This document shows positions 12,639 through 46,240 of a stretch of 64,000 bases of DNA, piece by piece; within the stretch, counting starts at the first letter, position 1; every line of letters starts with the position of its first letter. This DNA is from an uncultured Bacilli bacterium (GTDB lineage Bacteria > Bacillota_I > Bacilli_A > RFN20 > DUOF01). Under the pieces are notes generated by a model that worked only from the letters and a program-made list of their open reading frames with translations, had not been told where the DNA came from and did no database searches. Position numbers and translations under genes: made by a program. The stretch lies in the NCBI GenBank assembly GCA_944363575.1, contig CALVUJ010000021.1, positions 18,226 to 82,225 on the forward strand, given 5' to 3'.

Positions 12639-13364
12639 TTATTTACTAACAACTTTTTTATAAATATAATAAGCACATAAAAAGCCTGCTACTGATGGAG
12701 TGAAAATAATACTTGATGGAGGACACTTTTCTTTTAGAGTCTCACCCTTTTCATTAACAATTACACTTTGTTTACACGAGTTTTCTTTAGAAAAAACAAC
12801 ATTAATTTTTTTCATATCTTTTTCTTTATTTTCTTTTCTTATTAGTTCTCTTAACTTTTTAGCAACTGGATCATAGTTGGTTTTATCTAAAGTAGTAATT
12901 TCAATTTTAGTTAAATCCTCTTTATTACCCATTCCCATACTACTTATAAAATCAATTTTATTATCTAAACATAACTTAATTAACTCATATTTGCAACTAA
13001 TCGTATCAATTGCATCTACTACATAATCTACATGTTCATTTAAAATTAAAGAAAGATTATCTTTGTTTAAAAATACATTGTATGTTTTAACATTACATTT
13101 AGGATTAATATCTAAAACTCTTTTTTTACATACTTCTACTTTATCTTTACCTAACGTTGATTCTAGTGCAATAATTTGCCTATTTATGTTAGTAATATCT
13201 ACCTGATCTTTATCTATTAAAACAAAATTCTCTACGCCTAACCTTGCAAGTGCCTCTACTGCATAAGACCCTACTCCTCCTATGCCTACCACACACACTT
13301 TAAGTTTGCTTAATTTATCACATGTTTCTTTACCAAAATATAATTCATTACGAATAAATCTCAT
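12639..13364 (-). CDS. tcdA: ThiF family tRNA threonylcarbamoyladenosine dehydratase (TcdA-like)
   Basis: VGIGGVGS, DITNINRQ, VVDAID, SSMGMGNK, DPVAK. Confidence 0.85.
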   Translation of the reverse strand: MRFIRNELYFGKETCDKLSKLKVCVVGIGGVGSYAVEALARLGVENFVLIDKDQVDITNINRQIIALESTLGKDKVEVCKKRVLDINPKCNVKTYNVFLNKDNLSLILNEHVDYVVDAIDTISCKYELIKLCLDNKIDFISSMGMGNKEDLTKIEITTLDKTNYDPVAKKLRELIRKENKEKDMKKINVVFSKENSCKQSVIVNEKGETLKEKCPPSSIIFTPSVAGFLCAYYIYKKVVSK

Positions 13365-14269
13365 AAGCTATCCTCCAAATAGTTAATAACGTCATTAATT
13401 GTTTCACTAAAATTATCTAAATTGACATTAAACCATTTAACATCAAATTGATTATTAAACCAAGTATATTGTCTCTTGGCATAATTCCTTGATTTCTTTT
13501 TTATTAATTCAATAGCTTCTTTATAACTTATCTCATTTTTATAATACATAAATAATTCTTTATAACCAATAGCTTGTAAAGACTTATAATTTTTATCATG
13601 ATATTTATCATATAGTTTCTTCGTTTCTTCAAGTAAACCATTATCAATCATTAAATCTACTCTTTTATCAATTCTTTTATATAATTCTTCTCTAGGTAAT
13701 GTTAAGCCAATGAAATAAGTTTCATATAATGGTTTATGTTCTTGTGCTTCTAATAGTTCACTTTTCTTCTTTTGCGTGTTTTTAATAATATTTAAAGCTC
13801 TTTCTACTCTTCTTCGATTATTTACATGTAATTTATTAGCTTCTTTGGGATCCAATTTGGTTAACAAGGCATATAACTGTTCATTGGACATAGAAGCATA
13901 TTCTTCACTACGATTACTTTCTTCTTTATTAAAAGTATAATCGTATAAACTAGCTTTTAAATAAAGCCCCGTTCCTCCTACTATTAAAGGAAGCATCTTC
14001 TTTTCTTTAAAATATGCTATTTTTTCTCTTAAATCTTGTTGATATTCATACACACTATAATCTTCTTCTATTTCTTTAAAATCTAATAGATGATGCTTTA
14101 TTCCTTCTTTTTCTTCTTCGCTTACTTTGGCACTTCCAATATCTAATTCTTTATATATTTGCACACTATCACCATTAATAATCTCAGTATGAAAATACTT
14201 GGCTAATGCGATACTTAACTTTGTTTTTCCTACTCCTGTAGGTCCTACAATTACAACTACCTTATTCAT
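13361..14269 (-). CDS. miaA: tRNA dimethylallyltransferase
   Basis: GPTGVGKT, DSVQIY, VGGTGLY, QAIGYKE, YAKRQYTW. Confidence 0.98.
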   Translation of the reverse strand: MNKVVVIVGPTGVGKTKLSIALAKYFHTEIINGDSVQIYKELDIGSAKVSEEEKEGIKHHLLDFKEIEEDYSVYEYQQDLREKIAYFKEKKMLPLIVGGTGLYLKASLYDYTFNKEESNRSEEYASMSNEQLYALLTKLDPKEANKLHVNNRRRVERALNIIKNTQKKKSELLEAQEHKPLYETYFIGLTLPREELYKRIDKRVDLMIDNGLLEETKKLYDKYHDKNYKSLQAIGYKELFMYYKNEISYKEAIELIKKKSRNYAKRQYTWFNNQFDVKWFNVNLDNFSETINDVINYLEDSL

Positions 14270-14271
14270 CC

Positions 14272-16026
14272 TTAAACCCTTTTAAACATCTTATCTAACT
14301 CATAACTATCATATACAATTAAAGTAGGTCTTCCATGAGGGCAAGTAAACGGATTATTACACGTAAACAAATTATCTAGTAATGTTTGCATTTCTTGCAT
14401 AGATAATACTTTATTAGCTTTTAGGGATGCTTTGCATGCTAAAGTAGAAATAGCTTTTAATCGCAAATCACCTATTTTAAGTCTTCCATTATTTGATAAT
14501 ACTTGCTCAATCATGTCATCTATATATTCACTAGCATTTGCCTCTTTCATCCATATTGGTATAGTAGAAACTTTATAAGAATTAATTCCAAATGGTACCA
14601 TTTCTATTCCAATGTCTTTAAAAAGACTTAAATAATCCATTAATCTTCTAGATTGAGAATTACTCATATTGACTACAATAGGCACTAATAAATCTGTATA
14701 TAACCACTTTTCTTGATCATTTAACTCTTTTTGAAATTTTTCATAGTTTATACGTTCTGCCGCAGCATGTTGATCTACTATGTACAAGGCCTTTTCATCG
14801 TAAGCTAATATATATTTAGCATGCAACTGACCAATAGGATTCAATCTAATATATTTTTTTTCTTCATTAGGAACACTTGAGAAATCAACAAAATCATTTA
14901 CTTCTTCACTATCTTCTTTTATCAAATTCTCATTAATAGCTATTTCTTCCATAAAAGATGCTTTACTATTATAAAAGGTATCTACATCTAATTCTATTTG
15001 AGCACTTTTACTACTTGGTTCACTATAAATTCTTGGAGCAATATTTTCTACTTTAAAGACTTCTCTAATCGTTTTTTCCACCAGGCTTTTCAATTCATTT
15101 TCTTTAGATAATCTAACCTCGTGTTTAGCTGGATGTACGTTAACATCTACTAAAGTAGGATCTATCTCAATGTTAATAACAGTGATAGGAAAACGATCAT
15201 CACTTAAATATGTTTTATACGCATCTATCACAGCATTAACTACACCAATCATTCTTACACATCTTCCATTTAAAATAGTAATAATAAAATTACGATTAGA
15301 TTTAGATATCCCTAATGAACTAGTATACCCACTAATTACAAAATCGTCTGTCTCTCCACTAAATTTTTTCATTTCTCTAGCTACACTTATACCATATAAA
15401 CTTGAAATAACTTCTAAAACATCTCCTCGACCTGTACTAGAAAAATTAATCTTATCATCAATATATAATGTAAAACTAATATTTGGATGTGCTAAAGATA
15501 ACTTAGAAACAATTTCATTAATATGAGATATTTCAACATTATCTGATTTTAAATATTTAAGTCTAGCTGGAGTATTATAAAATAAATTTTCTACTTTGAT
15601 GGTTGTACCTTTTCTAGAAGCACAAGTTTCCTCTTCTACAACATTGCTATTAACTAGTTTCAGTTTAGTTCCCGCTTCACCAGTACTAGTTTCAATAGTC
15701 ACATTTGCTACTGCTGCAATAGAAGGAAGAGCCTCTCCTCTAAATCCTAGTGTATGTATGTTAAATAAATCTCTTTCTTTGATAATCTTCGATGTAGCAT
15801 GTCTTTTAAAAGCTAAATGAGCATCTTCTTTGTCCATCCCTTTACCATTATCACTAACACTAATTATTTTTTTACCTGCTTCTTTAATTTTTATTTCAAT
15901 ACTAGTAGCCCCAGCATCAATAGAATTTTCCACTAACTCTTTAACAACACTTGCTGGTCTTTCAATAACCTCTCCTGCTGCAATTTTATTGGCAAGTGCC
16001 GAATCTAACACTTTAATTAGGCTCAT
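14272..16026 (-). CDS. mutL: DNA mismatch repair endonuclease MutL
   Basis: IAAGEVIERP, LGFRGEAL, DVNVHPAK, DQHAAAER, ACK, CPHGRP. Confidence 0.98.
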   Translation of the reverse strand: MSLIKVLDSALANKIAAGEVIERPASVVKELVENSIDAGATSIEIKIKEAGKKIISVSDNGKGMDKEDAHLAFKRHATSKIIKERDLFNIHTLGFRGEALPSIAAVANVTIETSTGEAGTKLKLVNSNVVEEETCASRKGTTIKVENLFYNTPARLKYLKSDNVEISHINEIVSKLSLAHPNISFTLYIDDKINFSSTGRGDVLEVISSLYGISVAREMKKFSGETDDFVISGYTSSLGISKSNRNFIITILNGRCVRMIGVVNAVIDAYKTYLSDDRFPITVINIEIDPTLVDVNVHPAKHEVRLSKENELKSLVEKTIREVFKVENIAPRIYSEPSSKSAQIELDVDTFYNSKASFMEEIAINENLIKEDSEEVNDFVDFSSVPNEEKKYIRLNPIGQLHAKYILAYDEKALYIVDQHAAAERINYEKFQKELNDQEKWLYTDLLVPIVVNMSNSQSRRLMDYLSLFKDIGIEMVPFGINSYKVSTIPIWMKEANASEYIDDMIEQVLSNNGRLKIGDLRLKAISTLACKASLKANKVLSMQEMQTLLDNLFTCNNPFTCPHGRPTLIVYDSYELDKMFKRV

Positions 16027-34770: not shown

Positions 34771-34846
34771 TGGTGACCCGTACAAGACTCGAACTTGTGA
34801 CCCATTGATTAAGAGTCAATTGCTCTACCAACTGAGCTAACGGGCC
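34771..34846 (-). tRNA. tRNA-Lys (CTT)
   Basis: Cloverleaf; anticodon arm ATTGA-CTCTTAA-TCAAT; T-loop TTCGAGT; encoded CCA. Confidence 0.97.
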
Positions 34847-35062
34847 AACTGCTTTTTTATGATATGACATTTTTAAATAAATATCAATATCTTTTTACAA
34901 TTTTTAATAAATTTAACACTATATATTAAACCTCTTATACATTTCTATATTAATTTAGAATACTTTTATATTATAAATTTTTATGCATAAAAGTTTTTTT
35001 TCGACAATCTTTTACCTCTTATTATAATTTAATAGATATTATATGTAGAGAGGGGAAAAGAA

Positions 35063-35383
35063 ATGGAAGAAACGGTTGTTGCGGTAGATAAAAAGAAATT
35101 ATATAAATTAATTAATGTGAAAAAATATGATAAGGCTAGAAGTTACTTATATGATGAACAAAATAATATTTATCAAATGGCTATTGAAAGGTTAAATCCT
35201 TATATTGAACATGGTATTGTTTATGAAGAAGAAATAGATACTTTTATTCAAATAATTGAAAAAAATATTATTTATAATATGCTTAAAGATAAGAAAAATA
35301 TTGGGGTAAATGCTTTGTATTTAAATGAGATTATTGAAAAGAAGAAAAAGTTAGAGGAAATGAAAAAGGTTAAGCGTTGTTAA
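35063..35383 (+). CDS. Hypothetical protein
   Basis: 106-aa ORF with purine-rich RBS and a downstream hairpin. Confidence 0.6.
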   Translation: MEETVVAVDKKKLYKLINVKKYDKARSYLYDEQNNIYQMAIERLNPYIEHGIVYEEEIDTFIQIIEKNIIYNMLKDKKNIGVNALYLNEIIEKKKKLEEMKKVKRC

Positions 35384-35473
35384 TGCTTAACTTTTTTATT
35401 TAGGTATTCGTGCATTTTTTACACTTTATCTTTTTTTATTAATATTATGTAGTGAATAAAAAGGGGTGAAATA

Positions 35474-35890
35474 ATGGATAGTAAAATACTAGAAATAAAT
35501 AATTTATCTAAAAGTTTTTTTACTCTTGATGGTGAAATTGAAGTTTTAAAAGATATAGATATGAGTTTAAATGAAGGAGAGAAAATAGCTATCGTAGGTC
35601 CTAGTGGCTGTGGTAAATCGACTATTTTAAATTTGATAAGTGGGTTGATTAGTCCTAGTAAAGGTAATTTTGTTTTAAATGGTGATGTTGGGTACATGTT
35701 TCAAAAAGATAATTTACTAGAGTGGAGAACAATTTATAAAAATATTACAATAGGTTTAGAGATAAAGAAAAAACTTGATAAAGAACAAAAAGAAAAAATT
35801 GATGAGTTATTAAAGAAATATGATTTATATGAATTTAAAAATAGTTACCCATCAGAATTATCTGGTGGTATGAGGCAAAGAGTTGCTTGA
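35474..35890 (+). pseudogene. 5' part of NitT/TauT-type ABC ATPase, interrupted by the island
   Basis: Walker A GPSGCGKS, Q-loop MFQKD, ends at signature ELSGGMRQRVA* at the attL junction. Confidence 0.95.
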
Positions 35891-35938
35891 ATATGCTTAA
35901 GACACTTAAGCAAATAGCGATAAAAGTTGCTTTATAAT
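35882..35938 (+). repeat. 57-bp att-arm motif, copy 1 (attL)
   Basis: GTTGCTTGAATATGCTTAAGACACTTAAGCAAATAGCGATAAAAGTTGCTTTATAAT; 50/57 identical to copy 3. Confidence 0.9.
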
Positions 35939-35954
35939 AAATAATATTAGTAGA

Positions 35955-35996
35955 AAGAAAAATAACTAGAGTTTCAAATTTCTAGTCTTTTTTTAA
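35955..35996. terminator. Hairpin/terminator downstream of the first cargo module
   Basis: ACTAGAGTTT-C-AAATTTCTAGT imperfect hairpin flanked by A and T runs. Confidence 0.5.
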
Positions 35997-36009
35997 TTTT
36001 ATTAATTAT

Positions 36010-36603
36010 TTAATTGAAATTAACTTTTTTCCCTTTTTTATACACTTCTTCTCCAATAAGGAATTTTTTATTATCTAAATCAATATTTAATCTCTTAACT
36101 TCAATATAATGCTTCTTTTCTCCTTTTCTTCCTCTATCAACTCTAATTAAATATTTTTGATATTCTTTTTCTGCTAAAAAATATAAGTTGGAAAATGACT
36201 TTATTTGCTCTGAATCTGCTATTGGCTCAATTCCTGTAAAAATGAAAGAACAAAAATCAAAAACCTTTTCCATTGCATTTCTTTTTGTGGTCTTAGATAT
36301 CTCATATACTACATATGGTTCAGGATACATTTCTTTTAGAGATTGTAGAATGTTTTCATATTTTTTACCGTTTCCTTCTTTTCTTAAGACTAATTCGGTT
36401 AATTCTAATTCAATTATTTAATAAGTAATCAATAGATACATTAAATAGTTTAGATATTTCCCTTAAATTCTCCGCATCTGGCAATCCTGAATCATTCTCC
36501 CATTTAGTTATTGCTTGTCTTGATACATTAATACTATTTTGCTAATTCTTCTTGCGAAAGATCAAATTCCTTTCTAATCTTTCTTATTTTTTTCAAGTTT
36601 CAT
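36010..36603 (-). pseudogene. XRE family HTH regulator pseudogene; the 106-aa ORF 36010-36330 is its C-terminal fragment
   Basis: Fragments MKLE / KIRKIRKEFDLSQEELA / INVSRQAITKWENDSGLPDAENLREISKLFNVSIDYLL / ELELTELVLRK...MYPEPY, joined by about 3 frameshifts. Confidence 0.85.
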
Positions 36604-36707
36604 AACCTTTCACCTCTTTGGCTATATTAAATCATTATTTCTATCTCCTTATCAGCAACTTTACTTTACATTTATGCTACTTATCGTGGCATTTTTAAAT
36701 ATTCTAA

Positions 36708-37435
36708 TTATTCTTTTATTTTCCAATATCCAGTTTTATCAGAACCAACTCTTTCTACAACATTCTCCATTTTTAATTTTCTTAAAACTTTATAGATTGT
36801 AGATTCTGTTCTATTAAGAATACTCGCAAGTTCAGAAGTTGTAATATTAGAATTACTTCTTATTAGAGATATTATCTTTTGTTCAGTAAGATTAAATTTT
36901 ACACCTGAATTTACAATGTTAACAAATAAAGTATCATCAGAAATAGAAAGTCCCTTATCTTTGAATAACATCATTAAATATTCAAATGATAGTTTCTTTT
37001 TATTTGTTTTAATATCTATTAATTTGATATTAGCATCTAATAATTTGGTATGTAACTTTTCTATTTGTTCTTCACTCATACTTCTACAAGTAGAGCCTAT
37101 ACGAATATAACAACCGTTAGAGCTTCTTCCGTATTTTTTAATATAGTAAAGAGCATTTCCTTTTTTCACATTAACATAGATGATTTGTTTGTTTTCAATG
37201 TACTTAGTACCTATTTCAATTAATTCTTGAGGATTAGGCAAAATAGCAGTAGTTATAATATCAGATATCTTCTTTAATGATTCATCTATATTGTCTATAC
37301 CTGTTATAGTTCCATCATCTTCTACCCTATATAAATAGTTCCATCAAAACTATTTAAAAATGCTACGATTTCTTTTTCTAAAGTATCGTTTATTTTCCTT
37401 TTTAATTCGATTGATTCACTTTCACTAAATTTCAT
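36708..37435 (-). pseudogene. AlbA/Schlafen-like DNA-binding protein with a C-terminal wHTH, frameshifted
   Basis: MKFSESESIELKRKINDTLEKEIVAFLNSFDGTIYIG, then a frameshift near 37329 into VEDDGTITGID...ILPNPQE; C-terminal HTH ending VERVGSDKTGYWKI; the usual central domain appears to be missing. Confidence 0.85.
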
Positions 37436-37593
37436 TAAATCATCTCATTGTTACACAATTAGTTTACCATATTTAATAAAATATTAAGCAAAATAATTAA
37501 GCAACTTTAATAATCTATGAAAATTAATTTTATACTATTACGTTTATTTTTAGCTTTTAGACTGCTAATGTAAAATTATAGTTGAAACAATTT

Positions 37594-37650
37594 GTCGGTT
37601 GGATGCCTTTATGGTACCAAGTTAAATGGTGTTGAATATTGCTTTATAAC
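37594..37650 (+). repeat. 57-bp att-arm motif, copy 2 (diverged)
   Basis: GTCGGTTGGATGCCTTTATGGTACCAAGTTAAATGGTGTTGAATATTGCTTTATAAC; ungapped 37/57 to copy 3 and 35/57 to copy 1. Confidence 0.75.
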
Positions 37651-37657
37651 AATAACA

Positions 37658-39361
37658 TTAATGCCTAGCTCCAGGTTTAAAACCTGGGTTTTGTATAGAA
37701 CTACTAGCACCCACTGATGTAATTGTAGAATTTACCGTAAAGGTTGATAATTTTGTTGATCCTCCATAAAGGTTGTAAGTTGTCCCAACTTCTAATTCAG
37801 CGCAAGAAAAGATAATTGATTGTGCTGATTTAGTTAATGTATAAGATAATATTTCATTGTCATCAGAATCCGTTAGCGTAATTATTGTTCCTGCACTAAT
37901 TAAATTTTTGTGGGCAAAGGAAACAACATTTTGATTTGAATTTGAAGCAGGAGTTTCTACCATCCCTAGTGCACCAGAAGCAAACACAGTTCAACCATTA
38001 ACAATAATATTACCATCAGCATCTAAAGCAGCATCTGCACCATTTGTGCTGCCAGAAACAAAAAGAGTGCCACCACTTATCAAAATACTTCCATTACTAT
38101 CAACGCCATCTCCATTTGCATTAACACTAATTGTTGCTCCACTTATTATAATATGACAGTTATTATTAGCTACATTTATTTGAGTTTTTGATCCATCAGC
38201 TGCATTAATACCGTCATCAACTGCTTTTACATTAATTTCTCCACCACTTATTTCTACCTTAGCACTTTCAATACCTTCGTATGAATTATTAATTGTTATA
38301 TTCCCTGCTAATATTTTTAATAATGTTTCTGAATGGATTCCATCATCTCCACTAGTTATATCATAAGTTCCGCCATTAATTACTAGTTCACCATTACTAT
38401 GAATAGCATCATCATTAGCATTAATGGCTGTATTTCCTCCTTCTATATATACTAAATAATCACCACTTATTTCTTTATCTTCACTTCCCCAATCAATTGT
38501 ACCTGCTTTTATACCTTTACCTTCACCATTATCTGAAGATGTTTCTGTAATATTTGTTGGAGCACCTCCGTTAGTTAAAATATTTAAAGTTGATTCTTTA
38601 ATGTATACAAACGTATCTCCCTGTATTCCATCATTTAAGCTATTAATAGTAATATTAGCATTCTCTAAATAAACATAACCACCTGCTTCATAAGAAAAAC
38701 TAGGAACTGTTTCTAAATCATCATAAGCACCTATTTCTGCATGTATTCCATCTTTATTAGCTTCAATATCTAATGTAGCCCCCTTAACTATAACACGATT
38801 TGCTGAAATACCATTTTTAGTTGAACTTATAGTTAGTGAGCCAGGTCCATTAATTATTAAATCGCCTTCACAATCAATAGCGTTAGAACCACTTTCATTA
38901 CTATTTGAAATAGTATTATCACCAATTAAAGTTAATGTGAAAGAAACACTACTTTCAATTACTTTTTTCTCATTTGATAAATTTGCATTATTTAAATACA
39001 ATGTTACTCCTTGACTACTAACTGTTATCTTTTTATTTGTAATAGTAGTACTAACATAATAATTACCTGGACTAGTAATTTCATATTTATCTGTAATTTG
39101 AGTTGCATCACTAGGAACTTGACTCAATGATTCACCTGTTTCTAATACATTATTTAAGGCTTCATTAACACTATTATCTGAGCTTTCTACAGGAGTATCC
39201 GTGGCTACTTTTCCTCCACCTAAGCTATCCCCGGGATTAATAAAAATATCGTCATCATTATTTTTATTAAGACTACACCCACTTAAAATACACATCATAA
39301 ATGCTGCTAAAATTATTCTTTTTTTCATAAAGTTTCTCCTATTCTTTTTTATTTTACTCAC
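37658..39361 (-). pseudogene. Lipoprotein with carbohydrate-binding beta-helix domain (Cthe_2159/DUF4353-like), split by one in-frame TGA
   Basis: Lipobox ILSGC; DGI/DAIHS repeats; ORFs 37991-39361 and 37658-37987 are in one frame: GNIIVNG*TVFASGA. Confidence 0.85.
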
Positions 39362-39673
39362 TTTTTCTTAAAAAAAACTTAAAATATATAGATGAAATAA
39401 TTAATTTTTAAAGCAGATTCTCTAATTTTGTTATTAGGTCAATTAAGATGAAGTTTAAAAATTTTATATTCAAAATATAAATGTGTAACAAAAAAATAAA
39501 AAATGTTTCACATTTTAAATAAAAAGCCTGTAATAATTATATGAAATGAATCATTTTAGATTGTTTCGCGTAAAAAGGTCTATATTTCTTTAGATATAGT
39601 TAACTGATTTTTATATTACCTGCATACACCATTTAAAGTTTTCCCATAAACAAGTATAGTACTATTCTAACTT

Positions 39674-39730
39674 GTTGGTTGAATGTGCTTAAGACACTCG
39701 AGCAAACAGCGATAAAAATTGCTTTATAAC
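39674..39730 (+). repeat. 57-bp att-arm motif, copy 3
   Basis: GTTGGTTGAATGTGCTTAAGACACTCGAGCAAACAGCGATAAAAATTGCTTTATAAC; 12 nt from the stop codon of 39743-40579. Confidence 0.9.
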
Positions 39731-39742
39731 ATTTTTATATTA

Positions 39743-40579
39743 TTATAAAGGACGCAAAACTAGTATTTTTAGCGATATTGTTATTTCTTTAATATTTAAT
39801 TTACTTGTTTCAAAATTATGTGTAAGAGGAGTCATTTTTACTATGTCATTAGACAATTCTTTATTGATAGGCATTGTATATTCTAATTTTTTAGTTTCTA
39901 AAATCGTATTATTTTTTTTCAGATTATCTTCAACTAACTTTTCATTATCATACTCTTTGTGTCCTAATTCCCGTCTTATTTCTTTGAGATAATTTGCTGT
40001 AGGCAATACTTTAATTATAATTCCATTTTCTTTTAAAATTCTTTTGCATTCCTTTTTTGATCCAGGAGATAAAAAATCTAATATAACATCAATTGAATTA
40101 TCAACCAATGGAATGTTTTCTACATCAGCAACCAAAGATATAATATCATTATATACATAATCCGAAGATAACTCTATTGCATCTTTTGCTAAATCTATTG
40201 CGCATTTGAATTCTAAACTTAGTTTTTCACATATCTTATTTAAATGAGAACTTTCCCCACTTCCAATATCTAATATTGATGTAGGAATAGAAATATATTT
40301 TCTTATTAAATCAATAATTTCTACATGAATAGAATTATATATTCCGTTGTTTATAACACTTCTTCTAGACACAAACAATTCTTTTGTGTATATTGTCGAA
40401 TTTGGCAAGGAACTTAAGGATGTTAAGCAAAGATAACCTTTTTTATTTATATCAAAGCAGTGGTTATTTTCACAAGTAAAACTAGTATCAACAATTTTTA
40501 AATTTTTCTTACAATGAGGGCATATAAAATTGTCAGAATATTTTTTTAACAACTCAATAATTAGCTCTTTTTTTGACAT
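39743..40579 (-). CDS. RlmA-like 23S rRNA (guanine-N1) methyltransferase
   Basis: Zn finger CPHC...CENNHCFDINKKGY and SAM motif ILDIGSGE. Confidence 0.8.
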   Translation of the reverse strand: MSKKELIIELLKKYSDNFICPHCKKNLKIVDTSFTCENNHCFDINKKGYLCLTSLSSLPNSTIYTKELFVSRRSVINNGIYNSIHVEIIDLIRKYISIPTSILDIGSGESSHLNKICEKLSLEFKCAIDLAKDAIELSSDYVYNDIISLVADVENIPLVDNSIDVILDFLSPGSKKECKRILKENGIIIKVLPTANYLKEIRRELGHKEYDNEKLVEDNLKKNNTILETKKLEYTMPINKELSNDIVKMTPLTHNFETSKLNIKEITISLKILVLRPL

Positions 40580-41030
40580 AGTATCACCCTTTCACAAATA
40601 TATTACACTTAAAAAGTTTTTCATAAATATAGATTTTAGTTCAAATTTACAGGCACAAATTTTAATTTATGATTATCTTACCATTATTTCTCAAAGATAA
40701 ATAATCATCTCCTTGTAATTTATTTAAAATTATACCAAGGATGTTATCATAAACAACATTTATCAATCAATAAAAGATGTGCCTCTTTTTCTAGAACATA
40801 AGGGTATAAATGATTCCGATATACAACCTATGATAGCTTTCAATTCTCCGTTTCTTTCTAAAGCAAATAATTCGTTTTTTTTATTTTCCTATTACCTTCA
40901 GATTAAACCTGTACATTTTTTGCACAAGCTGAGTTTCCATCTAATTGAAAATCATTATCTATAAACATTACTACTTCATATTTACCCCTGCTTTTACTAT
41001 CTATCTCATTAGTATCTACACAAGATTTTT

Positions 41031-42623
41031 CTAAAAATTCCATTTAATTTCAATATTTCTAGAATTTGTTAAAACATCCATTTTTCCTATATAAATCTTA
41101 TCTATAAACTCATCTACAATTATTTTATTTAATTTATTTAAAGAAATATATTTTTCAAAAAGAAGATTCGTCTTTTCTATTGAATAATCTTTCATCTCGT
41201 AAATCTCAATTTTTCTATTTATATTTTTTATTTCTTTAGTTAAATGATTTGATTTATCTAAGTATGAATGAGTTAAATCTTTAAATTGATCAATAGATAT
41301 AAAACCATTTATCCTATCTTCATACAGTATTTTTAAACTATTTTTATTTCTTGCTATTTGTTTTTGTAATTCTTCTTTAGTTTTCTTTAAAGCATTTATT
41401 TTGCTTTTAAAATTATTTGATTTATCTTGAAGGCTATATTTTTCTAATTCTTTTAAATCATAATAATCATTTATCTTTTTATTTATTTCATCTAAAATAA
41501 TACTTTCTAAAACATCATATCTAATACTTTTTTTATTTACACAATCACTATATCCATCCAAATTACTAGAACATACTAGATACTCATGCCTTGCACTATT
41601 TTTCTTTCTTAAATATTTCCCACACTCTTTACAATAAACTTTGCCAGAAAACAAATGCACAACCCCTAAATTTGTTTTAGCTTTAGTTCTTCTTTTCATC
41701 TCAAGTTGTACAGCCTTAAAAGTATCCAGATCAATTATTGCTTCGTGAGTATTTTCTTTTCTAATCCACAAACTTTTATCTTTCTTTTTAACCTTATGAT
41801 TTTTATAACTAACTGTTGTTCTTTTTCCTTGTATTAAATGCCCTAAATATAATTCGTTTGTTAAAATTGTTTTTATCGCATTAGTAGTCCATTTAATACT
41901 CTCTCTATCCCGATTGCTTGTAACGTTAAGTTTGAGGCCTTTTTGATATTTATAAAGAGAAGGACATGGTATTTTCCTATCATTTAAATTTTTTGCCACT
42001 CCCGTTAAACCATATCCTTTTAAATATAACAAATAAATATCTTTTACAACTTCACTAGCAACTGGATCTATGACCAGTTTGTTATTGTTTTCTTTACTTA
42101 CTTCATAGCCATAACTTGCAAATGGAGATATATATTCCCCTTCTCTCATTTTAGCAATAAAAGCACTACGAATATTTTTTGACACATCTTCTAAATACCA
42201 TTCATTTACTAATCCATTTATTTGCCTAGCTTTTTTGTTTCCACTTACACTAGTGTCCGCATTATCTACTATCCCAATAAACCTAATTCCCCACTCAACA
42301 AATTTATTATGCAAGTATCTTTCAATTACTTCCATATCTCTTGAAAACCTTGATTGACTCTTACACATAACAATATCAATCTTTCCTTTTTCACAATCTT
42401 TAATTAACCTTTCAAACTCTGGCCTATATGTTCCTGCTCCTGATAAGTTTTCATCACAATACTCATCAACTAAAATATAGTTAGGATTTTTATTTACTTC
42501 ACTTATTAACATGAGTCTTTGATTTTTAATAGACTCGCTATCATCGCATTTATTCATTTTATCTTCATCTTCATCAGATAATCTAAGATATATACCCACT
42601 CTATAAAACTCTTTTTCACTCAT
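41031..42623 (-). CDS. Large serine recombinase (resolvase + recombinase + zinc-ribbon/coiled-coil)
   Basis: YLRLS catalytic Ser, SIKNQ, KSQSRFSR, YGYE, NELYLG, HEAIID, SGKVYCKECG. Confidence 0.96.
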   Translation of the reverse strand: MSEKEFYRVGIYLRLSDEDEDKMNKCDDSESIKNQRLMLISEVNKNPNYILVDEYCDENLSGAGTYRPEFERLIKDCEKGKIDIVMCKSQSRFSRDMEVIERYLHNKFVEWGIRFIGIVDNADTSVSGNKKARQINGLVNEWYLEDVSKNIRSAFIAKMREGEYISPFASYGYEVSKENNNKLVIDPVASEVVKDIYLLYLKGYGLTGVAKNLNDRKIPCPSLYKYQKGLKLNVTSNRDRESIKWTTNAIKTILTNELYLGHLIQGKRTTVSYKNHKVKKKDKSLWIRKENTHEAIIDLDTFKAVQLEMKRRTKAKTNLGVVHLFSGKVYCKECGKYLRKKNSARHEYLVCSSNLDGYSDCVNKKSIRYDVLESIILDEINKKINDYYDLKELEKYSLQDKSNNFKSKINALKKTKEELQKQIARNKNSLKILYEDRINGFISIDQFKDLTHSYLDKSNHLTKEIKNINRKIEIYEMKDYSIEKTNLLFEKYISLNKLNKIIVDEFIDKIYIGKMDVLTNSRNIEIKWNF

Positions 42624-42652
42624 AACTATTATAACCTATAAGCACTAAGTTC

Positions 42653-42784
42653 TTATAATTCATCTTCTAGTTCCCTTTCTAAAAAACAAATTATTTTATA
42701 TAGTTTTTTATTTATTATTTCTTTTAAATTATTTAATGATAAATTTTTAGTGTAAGAGTGAATCACATTGTACTTTATACCCAT
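42653..42784 (-). CDS. 43-aa ORF directly upstream of the recombinase
   Basis: GAGGATG RBS then MGIKYNVIHSYTKNLSLNNLKENNNKKLYKIICFLERELEDEL; below the ORF-track size cutoff. Confidence 0.5.
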   Translation of the reverse strand: MGIKYNVIHSYTKNLSLNNLKEIINKKLYKIICFLERELEDEL

Positions 42785-42976
42785 AAAAATCATCCTCATT
42801 AGATTATATTAAAAATTTTTTACTTCGTTACTTTTTGCACAAAAAAGCAAGAGCATACTCATCTAAGTATTATAACTAACTAAAATATTATCAACGTTTA
42901 CTAGGTGTTATTCCCTTATCAATTGTTTTAATATTTACTTCTTTAATTATTTCTTTAACAGCTTGTTTTGGTAAAA

Positions 42977-43570
42977 CTACACATTCTTCTTTTTTTTTAT
43001 ATATTGGCTTAAAATATTATCGTTCTTGTCTGGACTTTTATTAATTAAATATGTTTTCCCTTCTGTTTTACATAAAGCTAATTCGTATTGATTTGAATTA
43101 TCATAAACATATGCTCTATCTGCAACTTCAATTACTTTTTCCAATAACCCCATTGATTTATAATAACGAGAAACAATCTTCTCTTCAGGAACATCGTGCC
43201 CACCTTCTTTTACTCTTTTATGTACTCGCTCTATATTAATAGATGGATTTTTCGTTGTAACATAAAAGAGAATAACCTCGTAACCTTTTTGTTTAGCCAA
43301 TTTTAATAATTCTAAATTTCTATCTGTTGAAAGCACTGTCTCAAAAGAAAAATCTTCGCCTTTTTCTATCTTATCATGACGCATTTTTTCGGCATATTGT
43401 GCTGCTATTAAGTTTCTTTCGTTAGGATCTTTAATTACAGCAAGTGAATCTAATCTTGCTATATTATCAGCATTAATGAAAGGAACCTTAAGTTCATTTT
43501 CACTAACAATTTTAGCAAACAAAGTTGACTTTCCACTACCATTTGGCCCCGCAAAACAATAAACTTTCAT
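42977..43570 (-). CDS. Zeta-toxin-like P-loop ATPase/kinase (likely start ATG 43570)
   Basis: FAGPNGSGKST, FINAD, FSFETVLS, RVKEGGHDVPEEKIVSRY. Confidence 0.85.
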   Translation of the reverse strand: MKVYCFAGPNGSGKSTLFAKIVSENELKVPFINADNIARLDSLAVIKDPNERNLIAAQYAEKMRHDKIEKGEDFSFETVLSTDRNLELLKLAKQKGYEVILFYVTTKNPSINIERVHKRVKEGGHDVPEEKIVSRYYKSMGLLEKVIEVADRAYVYDNSNQYELALCKTEGKTYLINKSPDKNDNILSQYIKKKKNV

Positions 43571-43574
43571 CGTT

Positions 43575-43913
43575 TTATCTCCTCTTCTTATCATTAACAA
43601 AAGATTCTAAATCTTCATAGTCTATGTCTAACATTTTATTTATTATATCATCTGCTTCTTTAAAAGAAGGTATTTTTCCTTTACCTAACCCTTCTCCTTG
43701 AATTACATATTCAAGTTTTTTTAATGTTTCTTTATCATTATAAATAACCTTTTTAATAGCTAATGCAACATCCTTTTCTTCACTAGATTCATACATTTTT
43801 AACAAGTAATCTTTCTTTTCTTTTTTTACAAGCAAATATAATAAAGCTAAATTATATACCTTTTTATTTTTTTCTAATTCTCTCATCAAAATATCTATGT
43901 TCATCTTAATCAC
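43575..43913 (-). CDS. Small helical protein, candidate antitoxin partner of the zeta-like gene
   Basis: 112 aa ending 5 nt before the P-loop gene's likely start; role inferred from position. Confidence 0.55.
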   Translation of the reverse strand: MIKMNIDILMRELEKNKKVYNLALLYLLVKKEKKDYLLKMYESSEEKDVALAIKKVIYNDKETLKKLEYVIQGEGLGKGKIPSFKEADDIINKMLDIDYEDLESFVNDKKRR

Positions 43914-43996
43914 CTAAAGTTATTATATCATAATTTATATATCTATTAAAATATTAAATTATAGTCAATTAATTTAATTATGATTTATATATGATG

Positions 43997-44027
43997 GTGT
44001 CTTAAAAATAGTCATCCAGTTGCTTTA
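43997..44027 (+). other. attR of the LSR island
   Basis: GTGTCTTAAAAATAGTCATCCA-GT-TGCTTTA; the left arm is an inverted match (17/22) to the arm at attL. Confidence 0.85.
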
Positions 44028-44363
44028 ATCAGAACACTCGTTTTAAATCCCTCCATTTTATTACTAGATGAACCGTTTAGTGCTTTGGATGCTCAAACAA
44101 AAATAGCAGTAAATGAAGATGTTTATAATATTGTAAATAAAGAAAATAAAAGTGTTATTTTAGTTACTCATGATATTGCTGAAGCTATTGCTTTTTGTGA
44201 TAGAGTAATTGTTTTAACTAAAAGACCTACTTCTATTAAAAATATATATGAAATAAAGTTTGATGATTTAGAAAACAGAACACCTCTTAAAGCACGAAAG
44301 CACGTTTTATTTAAAGATTATTTCGATAAGATTTGGGGTGATTTAGATGAATTCAAAAAGTGA
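44019..44363 (+). pseudogene. 3' part of the interrupted ABC ATPase
   Basis: [28 protein letters not shown] (Walker B, D-loop), LVTHD H-loop; in frame with 35474-35883. Confidence 0.95.
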
Positions 44364-45150
44364 AGAAGCAAAAAAATATATTAAAAAGCAAAAAATAAAA
44401 AGAGTAAAAGTTATTTTTGCACAGATATTTATTTTAATAAGTTTCTTTCTTTTATGGGAATTCTTTTCTAGAAAAGAAATAATTGATAGTTTCTTATTTT
44501 CTAGTCCTAGTGCTATTTTTGATTTACTTAAGCAATATATCGTAACAGGTGAACTTTATAAGCACATTTATATTTCTGTTTATGAAACTATGTTAGGTTT
44601 AATAATTGGAACTTTTATTGGTATTATAATTGCTATTCTTTTATGGTGGAGTAAAACTTTAGCTAAGATATTAGATCCATTTTTAGTTGTTCTAAATGCT
44701 TTACCTAAAACAGCATTAGCTCCTATTTTTATCATTTGGGCTGGTACTGGTGTTAAAGGTATTGTGGTAGTAGCTGTCTCCATTTCTCTTATCATTACCA
44801 TTTTATCTGCTTATAACTATTTTAAGAGTGTAGATGAAGAGAAAATAAAAATGTTAAAGAGTTTTGGGGCTAATAAATGGCAAATATTATGGAAACTTGT
44901 TTTGCCATCTAACATGGTAAATTTAGTAAATATTGTGAAGATTAATATTGGTATGTCATGGGTTGGTGTTATTATGGGTGAGTTTATTGTATCCCGTGCA
45001 GGTATTGGTTATTTAGTAATGTATGGAAGCCAAGTGTTCAAACTTGATTTAGTAATGATGGGGGTTTTTATTCTAGCAATTATTGCTTATGTTATGTATC
45101 AAATAGTTAATGTTATTGAAAAAGGTTTAAAAAAGAAAATTAGTAAATAA
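44347..45150 (+). CDS. NitT/TauT family ABC permease
   Basis: LNALPKTALAPIF, EAA-like MLKSFGANKWQILWKLVLP, GEFIVSRAGIG. Confidence 0.92.
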   Translation: MNSKSEEAKKYIKKQKIKRVKVIFAQIFILISFFLLWEFFSRKEIIDSFLFSSPSAIFDLLKQYIVTGELYKHIYISVYETMLGLIIGTFIGIIIAILLWWSKTLAKILDPFLVVLNALPKTALAPIFIIWAGTGVKGIVVVAVSISLIITILSAYNYFKSVDEEKIKMLKSFGANKWQILWKLVLPSNMVNLVNIVKINIGMSWVGVIMGEFIVSRAGIGYLVMYGSQVFKLDLVMMGVFILAIIAYVMYQIVNVIEKGLKKKISK

Positions 45151-45205
45151 TCACCTTTTTGGTTTTATTTAATACTTTATTAATAGAGAAAATGGAGGAA
45201 ATTGA

Positions 45206-46240
45206 ATGAAAAAAATTAAATATTTATTTATTACTTTATTAGCTTTTCCTTTCCTTGTAATTAATGGGTGTAGCTGTGATAAGGATGATGGATTAAAAAA
45301 AATAACTGTTGCAGAAGTGACCCATAGTGTCTTCTATGCTCCTCAATATGTAGCTGCTAGTAAAGGATTCTTTGAAGAAGAAGGCTTAAAAGTTAGTTTT
45401 GTAAATACTAATGGGGCTGATAAAACAATGGCTGCTTTATTATCGAAAGATGCTCAAATAGGTTTGATGGGCAGTGAAGCTTCAATTTATGTTTACAATG
45501 AAGGACAAAAAGATTATGCGATTAACTTTGCTCAATTAACACAAAAAGATGGAAGTTTCCTTGTAGGTAGAACAGATATTGAAAACTTTGAATTATCTAT
45601 GTTATCTGGTAAAGAAATACTTGGAGGAAGGCTTGCAGGTATGCCTGAAATGGTTCTTGAATATATTTTGAAAAATGCTAATTTAGAAATTGGTGTTAAT
45701 GATGATAGTAAAGATGTAAATGTAAGAACAGATGTTCAGTTTTCTGCAATGGCAGGAGCTTTTACTTCAGGTGAAGGAGATTATGTTTCTTTATTTGAAC
45801 CTACTGCTTCTAGTTTAGAAAAAAATAATCAAGGATATATCGTTGCTTCTTTAGGTGAATTATCTGGTAATATTCCTTATACAGCTTACTCTACTTTAAA
45901 AAGTTATATGAATAAAAATAGTGACACTATTCAGAAATTTACAAATGCTATATATAAGGCACAAAAATGGGTTTATGAACACAGCGATGAAGAAGTAGCT
46001 GAGGCTATACAATCATACTTTATTGATACAAGTAAAGAAGATTTAACATCCGCTGTTAAAAACTATCGAACTATAGAAGCTTGGGCTAAGGATCCTACGT
46101 TAACTGTTGAATCACTAGATAAATTAATGGATATTATTGAACTAGCAGGTCAACTTGATAAACGTGCTCCTTATGATAAAATAGTTACTACTGAGTATGC
46201 TAGAAAAGCAATTGAAAGTTTAAGCGAAAAAGGTTCATGA
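45206..46240 (+). CDS. NMT1/THI5-like ABC substrate-binding lipoprotein
   Basis: Signal peptide/Cys, EVTHSVFYAPQYVA, GADKTMAALLS, FEPTAS, PYTAY. Confidence 0.9.
   Translation: MKKIKYLFITLLAFPFLVINGCSCDKDDGLKKITVAEVTHSVFYAPQYVAASKGFFEEEGLKVSFVNTNGADKTMAALLSKDAQIGLMGSEASIYVYNEGQKDYAINFAQLTQKDGSFLVGRTDIENFELSMLSGKEILGGRLAGMPEMVLEYILKNANLEIGVNDDSKDVNVRTDVQFSAMAGAFTSGEGDYVSLFEPTASSLEKNNQGYIVASLGELSGNIPYTAYSTLKSYMNKNSDTIQKFTNAIYKAQKWVYEHSDEEVAEAIQSYFIDTSKEDLTSAVKNYRTIEAWAKDPTLTVESLDKLMDIIELAGQLDKRAPYDKIVTTEYARKAIESLSEKGS

Follow-up and report, generated by a model that had tools for sequence, protein, structure and literature searches.

A 64-kb stretch of DNA from an uncultured Bacilli bacterium (contig CALVUJ010000021.1; this whole stretch is called the window below) contains a region that our analysis supports as a serine-recombinase island with attL and attR at its ends. 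The island is an 8.14-kb insert (35882-44018) that splits the ATPase gene of an ATP-binding cassette (ABC) transporter at the LSGGMRQRVA/L codons of the ABC signature motif, with GT as the crossover dinucleotide. We think it probable that the island is a composite, within a widespread family of integrative elements of gut Bacilli, in which sister elements accreted or nested at one site and then decayed. The finding documents a large and apparently undescribed family of serine-recombinase elements of uncultured gut Bacilli that targets the signature-motif codons of one ABC ATPase gene, together with one island carrying orphan half-sites and what are probably piled-up sister elements. A new mechanism of gene capture is not established by it.

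The att sites can be read from the interrupted gene itself. When the insert is removed, 35474..35883 and 44019-44363 join to encode a protein of 250 aa, which gives one continuous alignment to ABC ATPase models; at present, the frame of the 5' fragment is stopped by a TGA (35888-35890) supplied by the element. The element-side arms are mirror images, with GTGTCTTAA lying 13 nt to the left of the GT at attR and TTAAGACAC 13 nt to the right of it at attL, so that attP, when reconstructed, is nearly palindromic around the GT (GTGTCTTAA-N13-GT-N13-TTAAGACAC). The same arrangement was found in a related element (L045), whose attL and attR have only AGT in common, pinning the crossover to the GT dinucleotide. 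The features expected of a large serine recombinase element were found in the island, namely recombinase domains, hybrid att bounds around a restorable host gene, and an inverted-repeat attP around a non-palindromic dinucleotide.

The recombinase matches PF00239 (5e-18), PF07508 (6e-24) and PF13408 (2e-11), all above the cut-off; over 3,600 homologues of it were found in the protein collection. It resembles TndX and TnpX (Tn5397/Tn4451) in its domain architecture, its DUF4368-like C-terminus (22 bits, below the cut-off), its ~30% identity to TndX and the match of its N-terminal domain to the structures of TnpX and 3g13; this domain also matches the structure of the TP901-1 integrase. The genomic context was fetched for relatives of 57-77% identity from metagenome-assembled genomes and metagenomes. 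Every one of them (L001-L007, L045-L047, L058-L068; at least 11 distinct elements) lies in the same ABC ATPase gene and at the same GT, and the elements measure ~3.7-11 kb where both junctions were located. The left host arm (B) was recognised at attL in L001, L002, L004, L007, L045, L058, L064 and L068, and a homologous right host arm (B') at attR in L002-L005, L007, L045, L047 and L068. The cargo of these relatives is varied (TetR, Lin1244-like, zinc-ribbon membrane proteins, SocA/Panacea, DnaB-like ATPases, RhuM/Fic). Many of the relatives L058-L067 carry a Mob_Pre relaxase gene next to the recombinase (e.g. L064 8098-9558), some with a DnaB-like ATPase, and the family therefore includes integrative mobilisable elements (IMEs).

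The crossover dinucleotide of TndX and TnpX is GA, unlike the GT of the sub-family described here, whose sampled members (at least 11 elements) use one specific site. Recombinases with DUF4368 form a TndX-like clade enriched for relaxed, multi-site targeting (Durrant et al., PMC10083194); unlike this wider clade, the sub-family of the window recombinase looks site-specific. The clean natural sets of attB, attP, attL and attR for at least 11 related recombinases may help the study of site recognition by serine integrases.

Inside the island, a 57-nt motif occurs three times on the + strand, at 35882, 37594 and 39674, and these copies formed a single family in a repeat search of the window. A preliminary description of this DNA had reported the three positions with ungapped identities of 50/57 (copies 1 and 3), 35/57 (copies 1 and 2) and 37/57 (copies 2 and 3), and both were reproduced by the repeat search and an ungapped recount. 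Its other statements on the anatomy also held. The first 24 nt of the motif are the attL arm, consisting in copy 1 of GT and the P' half-site on the element side. Copies 2 and 3 are separated from a cargo stop codon by 7 nt (37651-37657) and 12 nt (39731-39742), respectively; the open reading frame (ORF) list and Pfam agree that all ORFs of the island are on the - strand with a single recombinase gene; and the gene assignments came back in Pfam (Resolvase/Recombinase/Zn_ribbon, Zn_ribbon_RlmA plus methyltransferase, Cthe_2159, a weak AlbA_2 and Zeta_toxin).

The best other match to the motif on either strand of the window (128,000 positions) reaches 32/57, with a background mean of 16-17 and a standard deviation of 3.3-3.4. 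Copies 1 and 3, with an identity far above this maximum, are unambiguous. The homology starts at the crossover GT and stops at +57, and the 72 nt on each side align no better than shuffles (p = 0.3-0.99), confining it to the 57 nt. Folding of the three copies on both strands gave z values of -1.38 to +0.08 against shuffles and no shared structure. Scans for terminator and promoter consensus placed nothing at the motif (56 promoter-like sites found, 65 expected), and an Rfam search of the island returned no match.

A half-site position matrix was then derived from nine arms of the family, three of which are the window's own sites, so that the high scores of these are partly built in. In the 64-kb window it gave three strong sites, copy 3 (39676, 37 bits), copy 1 (35884, 34 bits) and attR (43997, opposite strand, 28 bits), followed by a next-best site at 14.7 bits; the arm of copy 2 scored 0.4 bits. 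This low score raises the question of whether only two copies are real, copy 2 owing its match to chance or convergence in AT-rich sequence and the island being a two-part composite, and the identities of copy 2 are indeed just 3-5 above the background maximum. We consider this unlikely, since copy 2 is the top non-self match of each of the other two, with strand and register the same, and is intergenic and directly after a stop codon, as copy 3 is. Its last 17 nt match copy 3 at 16/17 positions and the other 40 nt at 21/40, where ~12 would be expected, and each of these matches is individually unlikely. Copy 2 therefore appears to be a weak yet real relative of the motif, above chance.

Bases 25-57 of the motif form a 33-nt tail that closes with a CTTATAA-like box. 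The relatives do not share the tail of copies 1 and 3 as a whole, only its end. A CTTATAA-like box lies on the attL side, 50-56 nt from the crossover, in L001, L007, L064 and L068 and, in a looser form, in L045 and L058 (about half of the relatives), and was not found on their attR side. As the box stands at the same place in the relatives, the 57 nt plausibly represent the functional left end of the family, made up of half-site, spacer and box, which would explain why the similarity between the copies ends there. Copy 2, judged by its arm and tail, looks like a decayed relic of this left-end unit. In the window, the box (RTTGCTTTATAA) is found at 35925-35938, 37637-37650 and 39717-39730, and that of copy 1 reads AGTTGCTTTA, with 10 nt identical to the attB core and the start of the right host arm. 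The box was also considered as a sigma-70 promoter, a candidate that was dropped because the -35-like hexamer matches at just 3/6 positions.

To the left of copies 2 and 3, the DNA is neither P-arm-like nor attB-arm-like, by the half-site matrix or by eye, and the internal junctions therefore hold one recognisable arm at most. Two candidates at these flanks were rejected. Taken as P arms in decay or as pseudo-attB arms, the left flanks of copies 2 and 3 match at just 5-8 positions, no more than chance would give in this AT-rich DNA. For a remnant of the RlmA 3' end beside copy 1, the extension of the copy 1/copy 3 alignment to ~90 nt was no better than shuffles.

The right-hand 4.35 kb of the island (39674-44018) comprises a left-end unit, the methyltransferase cargo, the recombinase with its small ORF, a toxin-like pair and the right att arm, and has the size and the parts of a complete, self-contained member of the family. 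The left-hand 3.8 kb consists of two recombinase-less remnants, each headed by its own 57-nt left-end unit (GT, a 22-nt half-site and a 33-nt tail). The recombinase module (40808-42799: small ORF, recombinase and a gene remnant) is flipped with respect to both host gene and att arms. The relatives compared (L002, L004, L045, L047, L058, L064, L068) all have the recombinase pointing to attR and the ABC 3' fragment; that of the window points to copy 3, and the zeta-like gene pair lies between it and attR. No inverted repeats were found at plausible breakpoints of the inverted module.

A modular accreted composite, which the preliminary description had given as its second option, fits these data. 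The order of events and the mechanism that we infer are as follows. Sister elements would have arrived one after another at the occupied site, each newcomer nesting in a secondary site of the resident or using a junction that keeps one authentic host arm. Entry through secondary sites is plausible because the DUF4368/TndX-like clade is enriched for relaxed targeting (PMC10083194). The redundant right-hand parts (extra recombinase genes and right arms) would have dropped out, for which homologous recombination between sister sequences in direct repeat is the simplest route, and the leftover modules would then have decayed. If the recombinase is active today, it should still pair copy 1 with attR, which would excise the whole island and restore the ABC gene, and it may pair copy 3 with attR, which would excise the right-hand element alone; no activity is expected of copy 2. 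A test case for the use by a TndX-like enzyme of a junction with one cognate arm is offered by the orphan half-site at 39674.

Several points weigh against this history. Inside the island, the half-site matrix and tblastn detected no remains of a second recombinase gene, nor any of a right-hand att arm; the proposed losses are traceless and must have removed everything up to the next unit. The left neighbours of copies 2 and 3, neither P-like nor clearly B-like, give no pointer to the sites of entry. The most decayed cargo adjoins copy 1, whose arm is intact, which does not yield a straightforward order of ages. In character, the lipoprotein and RlmA-like genes resemble chromosomal genes and not typical element cargo. 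Finally, the orientation of the recombinase module, inverted relative to all relatives, implies at least one further rearrangement.

The lack of a second right arm or recombinase relic would be accounted for by an internal duplication, in which the left-end unit was copied by unequal crossing-over, slippage or gene conversion and unrelated genes were inserted between the copies later. A homology of just 57 nt with dissimilar flanks would also agree with such an origin. We nevertheless regard it as improbable. The copies begin exactly at the crossover GT and span the functional end of the family, which would not be expected of a random duplication. Moreover, they are 12% and 35-39% diverged, with kilobases of unrelated genes between them, and several independent insertions would be needed anyway.

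The first option of the preliminary description had been an integron-like array of captured cassettes. In an active platform of this kind, the recombinase would insert circles made of one 57-nt unit and a gene into the unit on the attL side, leading to a build-up like that of integrons or of the staphylococcal cassette chromosome (SCC). The boundaries of the units are sharp, copies 2 and 3 stand just after cargo stops, the cargo is co-oriented and served by one recombinase, copy 3 is an excellent half-site and the modules differ in their kind of cargo, all of which such a platform would produce; the Ccr enzymes are a precedent for this principle among serine recombinases (PMC11470126). The nine relatives whose contig includes attL were each scanned with their own 57-nt unit and their own 24-nt arm, and none of the nine has a second direct left-end copy, the sole other match being the inverted arm at attR. 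The check proposed with this option, for variable cargo between motifs beside homologous recombinases, therefore does not support it: the cargo varies at the same attB, but internal motif copies are absent from 9/9.

Wider searches gave a similar picture. When the three copies were turned into an nhmmer profile and 1.02 Mb (the window and 69 loci) were searched with it, only these copies and their duplicates in L057, which is the same DNA, were retrieved, and at the attL of the relatives the arm portion alone matches. In viral contigs, neither the P' arm nor the tail had an exact match, and in the JGI metagenome contigs the P' arm gave two chance matches inside unrelated genes. When 57 loci were compared with themselves for direct repeats near the recombinases, paralogous coding repeats (hsdS-like and methyltransferase genes) were obtained and no att arrays. 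No tyrosine-recombinase domain was found with Pfam in the eight island ORFs scanned.

An active cassette platform is thus rather unlikely, given the lack of arrays in nine relatives at the same attB, the absence of the motif from ~1 Mb of related loci and the lack of a real match to its fragments in viral and metagenome collections. In addition, copy 2 is not a half-site, the motif has no single-strand fold, the cargo of modules 1-2 is pseudogenised, and each module keeps its own upstream region of 155-310 nt, so that the cassettes are not promoterless. The internal junctions are one-armed, whereas serine integrases act as dimers on two-armed sites. An integron-like mechanism of gene capture is not supported by the island, and the conceptual novelty that had been claimed for it has a precedent in the Ccr recombinases that move tandem SCC-like cassettes (PMC11470126). 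It is equally doubtful that the 57-nt unit is a portable one-armed site, at which a TndX-like recombinase stacks or swaps single-gene modules at attL without a second cognate arm. If true, this would amount to an SCC-like cassette system outside staphylococci operating on half-sites, with the island as the first example of it, in part decayed.

Tandem SCC-like cassettes of staphylococci contain several att sites, and the Ccr recombinases of one cassette excise its neighbours too (PMC11470126). Such an array is the nearest analogue of the island, by resemblance of layout and not by membership. SCC and SCCmec likewise have a large serine recombinase, directly repeated att-type sites that divide the modules, a recombinase in one module alone and an insertion within a conserved host gene, and nested excision of modules or of the whole array would be expected. 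The resemblance is limited to layout because the enzyme is not a Ccr (80.5 bits on the NCBIfam CcrB model, cut-off 900), the target differs (an ABC ATPase gene split mid-gene, as opposed to the 3' end of rlmH, or orfX, for SCC) and a single internal site looks usable, with one recognisable half-site kept at the internal junctions. Furthermore, arrays are not a trait of the island's family.

In streptococci, integrative and conjugative elements (ICEs), IMEs and cis-mobilisable elements (CIMEs) undergo site-specific accretion at an occupied att site, with cis-mobilisable remnants; they use tyrosine integrases and have full att repeats at every junction. The island is similar in its proposed succession of elements at one site, its att-bounded remnants without a recombinase and its relaxase-bearing mobilisable relatives, and differs in using a serine recombinase and in having half-sites only as internal sites. 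Unlike the Mob_Pre-bearing relatives L058-L067, it has no relaxase gene: a Pfam scan of the island found no Mob domain, and in a comparison with the element proteins of the relatives the only matches were to the recombinase, to the small ORF before it and to the gene that comes after it. The island has lost, or never had, the relaxase and DnaB-like ATPase genes. The likeness to integrons is one of form only, with co-oriented genes each followed by a recombination-site-like repeat and a single recombinase. In contrast to integrons, the island has a serine recombinase and no IntI-type tyrosine integrase, its repeats lack attC-type folded single strands, its cargo has upstream regions of its own and is decayed, and there is no evidence of cassette turnover in the relatives.

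As the contig is metagenome-derived, elements of different strains might have been joined at the repeat during assembly, and the Logan contigs of the same DNA do break within the recombinase region, at 40721 and 42316. An artefact of this kind is extremely unlikely. A Logan contig of ERR4096492 is 100% identical to 34811-40721, which includes the host flank and copies 1, 2 and 3, and a second Logan contig is 99.97% identical to 42316-45556, across attR. Exact repeats between the copies do not exceed 13 nt, the longest run common to copies 1 and 3, which is far below the k-mer sizes of assemblers, and misassembly through the repeat is therefore not credible. The contigs of this second assembly are unbroken across all four junctions and give no hint of abundant alternative junctions, although this is weak evidence.

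Table 1. Features of the island and of the interrupted host gene (window coordinates).
Feature	Position	Strand	Evidence or remarks
ABC ATPase 5' part (NitT/TauT-type; attB left arm, ...GGTATGAGGCAAAGA/GT)	35474..35883	+	ABC_tran Pfam, residues 25-138
Motif copy 1, predicted working attL	35882..35938	+	GT crossover 35882-83, P' half-site 35884-35905, 33-nt tail ending GTTGCTTTATAAT
XRE-type helix-turn-helix pseudogene with C-terminal extension	36010..36603	-	Three-frame translation: three frames, at least 2 frameshifts, one stop
AlbA_2 (Schlafen-like) + winged helix-turn-helix gene	36708..37435	-	Pfam HTH_11, HTH_24, MarR; weak AlbA_2; frameshift near 37330
Motif copy 2, apparent degenerate relic of left-end unit	37594..37650	+	Arm 0.4 bits; tail end AATATTGCTTTATAACA
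Cthe_2159-family lipoprotein gene, 556 codons	37658..39328	-	Pfam; GGA>TGA nonsense mutation 37988-37990
Motif copy 3, internal	39674..39730	+	GT, intact-looking P' half-site 39676-39697, then 33-nt tail
RlmA-like 23S rRNA guanine-N1 methyltransferase gene, intact, 278 aa	39743..40579	-	Pfam Zn_ribbon_RlmA + Methyltransf_11
Short remnant of the gene found after the recombinase in relatives	40808..40885	-	tblastn 54-62% over 26 aa to L002, L004, L058 ORFs
Large serine recombinase, 530 aa, intact	41031..42623	-	Pfam Resolvase, Recombinase, Zn_ribbon_recom; DUF4368 sub-threshold
Small ORF just upstream of recombinase (...KYNVI...LKEIINKKLYKII...)	42653..42799	-	Same motif in ORFs of relatives
Zeta-toxin/AAA_33-like kinase gene	42977..43570	-	Pfam Zeta_toxin 2.8e-10; frames
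ORF of ~110 aa overlapping the start of the longest zeta-like frame	43575..43913	-	ORF list; putative antitoxin by position alone
attR	43997..44020	+	P half-site 43997-44018 (GTGTCTTAA-N13, 28 bits) + GT crossover 44019-20
ABC ATPase 3' part (attB right arm, GT/TGCTTTAATCAGAAC...)	44019..44363	+	Reading frame resumes at 44019 with VALIRTLVLNPSILLLDEPFSALD

The genes of the island are listed in Table 1. Four or five reading frames are broken within its 8 kb, and long open frames cover the 56 kb flanking it, so that the decay is confined to the island. In the left-hand modules, the 106-aa C-terminal ORF of the XRE-type pseudogene had no match in Pfam, NCBIfam or PADLOC, and the AlbA_2 gene was called as pieces of 177 aa and 37 aa in the second assembly. 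The two closest homologues of the lipoprotein lie in ordinary chromosomal neighbourhoods, and the column of its nonsense mutation holds Gly in 6/6 full-length homologues (58-63% identical in the alignment). Reading this TGA as Trp, as for DNA of code-4 origin, was rejected, since the homologues have Gly there and the host genes are open under code 11. In the Logan copy of the locus (L057 2848-4518, equal to 37658-39328 of the window) the gene call gives an intact lipoprotein of 556 aa despite identical DNA with the in-frame TGA. The Logan gene caller apparently read the TGA as a sense codon, and public gene calls for this organism may therefore hide pseudogenes.

The RlmA-like protein matches the NCBIfam models for RlmA, Erm(32), ChrB and MyrA, all below the cut-off, and its three closest homologues (~52%) are in chromosomal contexts as housekeeping copies. 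A tblastn search of the island cargo against all fetched loci found chromosomal RlmA homologues only. Erm(32), ChrB and MyrA are G748 methyltransferases tied to resistance to tylosin-type macrolides, and an RlmA-like gene on a mobile element might be a resistance determinant.

Around the recombinase, the remnant at 40808..40885 sits inside the broken reading frames of 40580-41030; the corresponding gene after the recombinase was called RhuM/Fic in L058, and the matching ORF of L002 occupies the same position. Small ORFs of 36-48 aa with the motif ...YN(V/I)ID.VD...LKEIINKKLYKII... also precede the recombinase gene in L004, L006, L007, L058 and L068, and the DNA at 42687-42750 is conserved in the family. 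This region upstream of the recombinase was the only match when the intergenic segments of the island were compared by blastn with the fetched loci. The small ORF, which had no family match, could encode a regulator or a directionality factor. In the zeta-like gene, a T-run near 43000 (an A-run on the coding strand) moves the last codons to another frame, and the adjoining ~110-aa ORF had no match in Pfam, NCBIfam or PADLOC.

Two further observations concern the relatives. In L064, a second, shorter serine recombinase gene (422 aa; 13048-14962) directly follows a shortened permease gene (223 aa vs ~265 aa elsewhere), which suggests that another element has inserted in a neighbouring gene of the same transporter operon. 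Rightwards from a breakpoint at ~4355, which lies 176 nt inside the left end, L068 and L069 are 99.8% identical over 8 kb, and they encode an identical recombinase. To the left of the breakpoint their DNA is unrelated, L069 having nSTAND/AAA genes where L068 has attL, and this pair shows a cargo mosaic whose boundary is independent of the att site.

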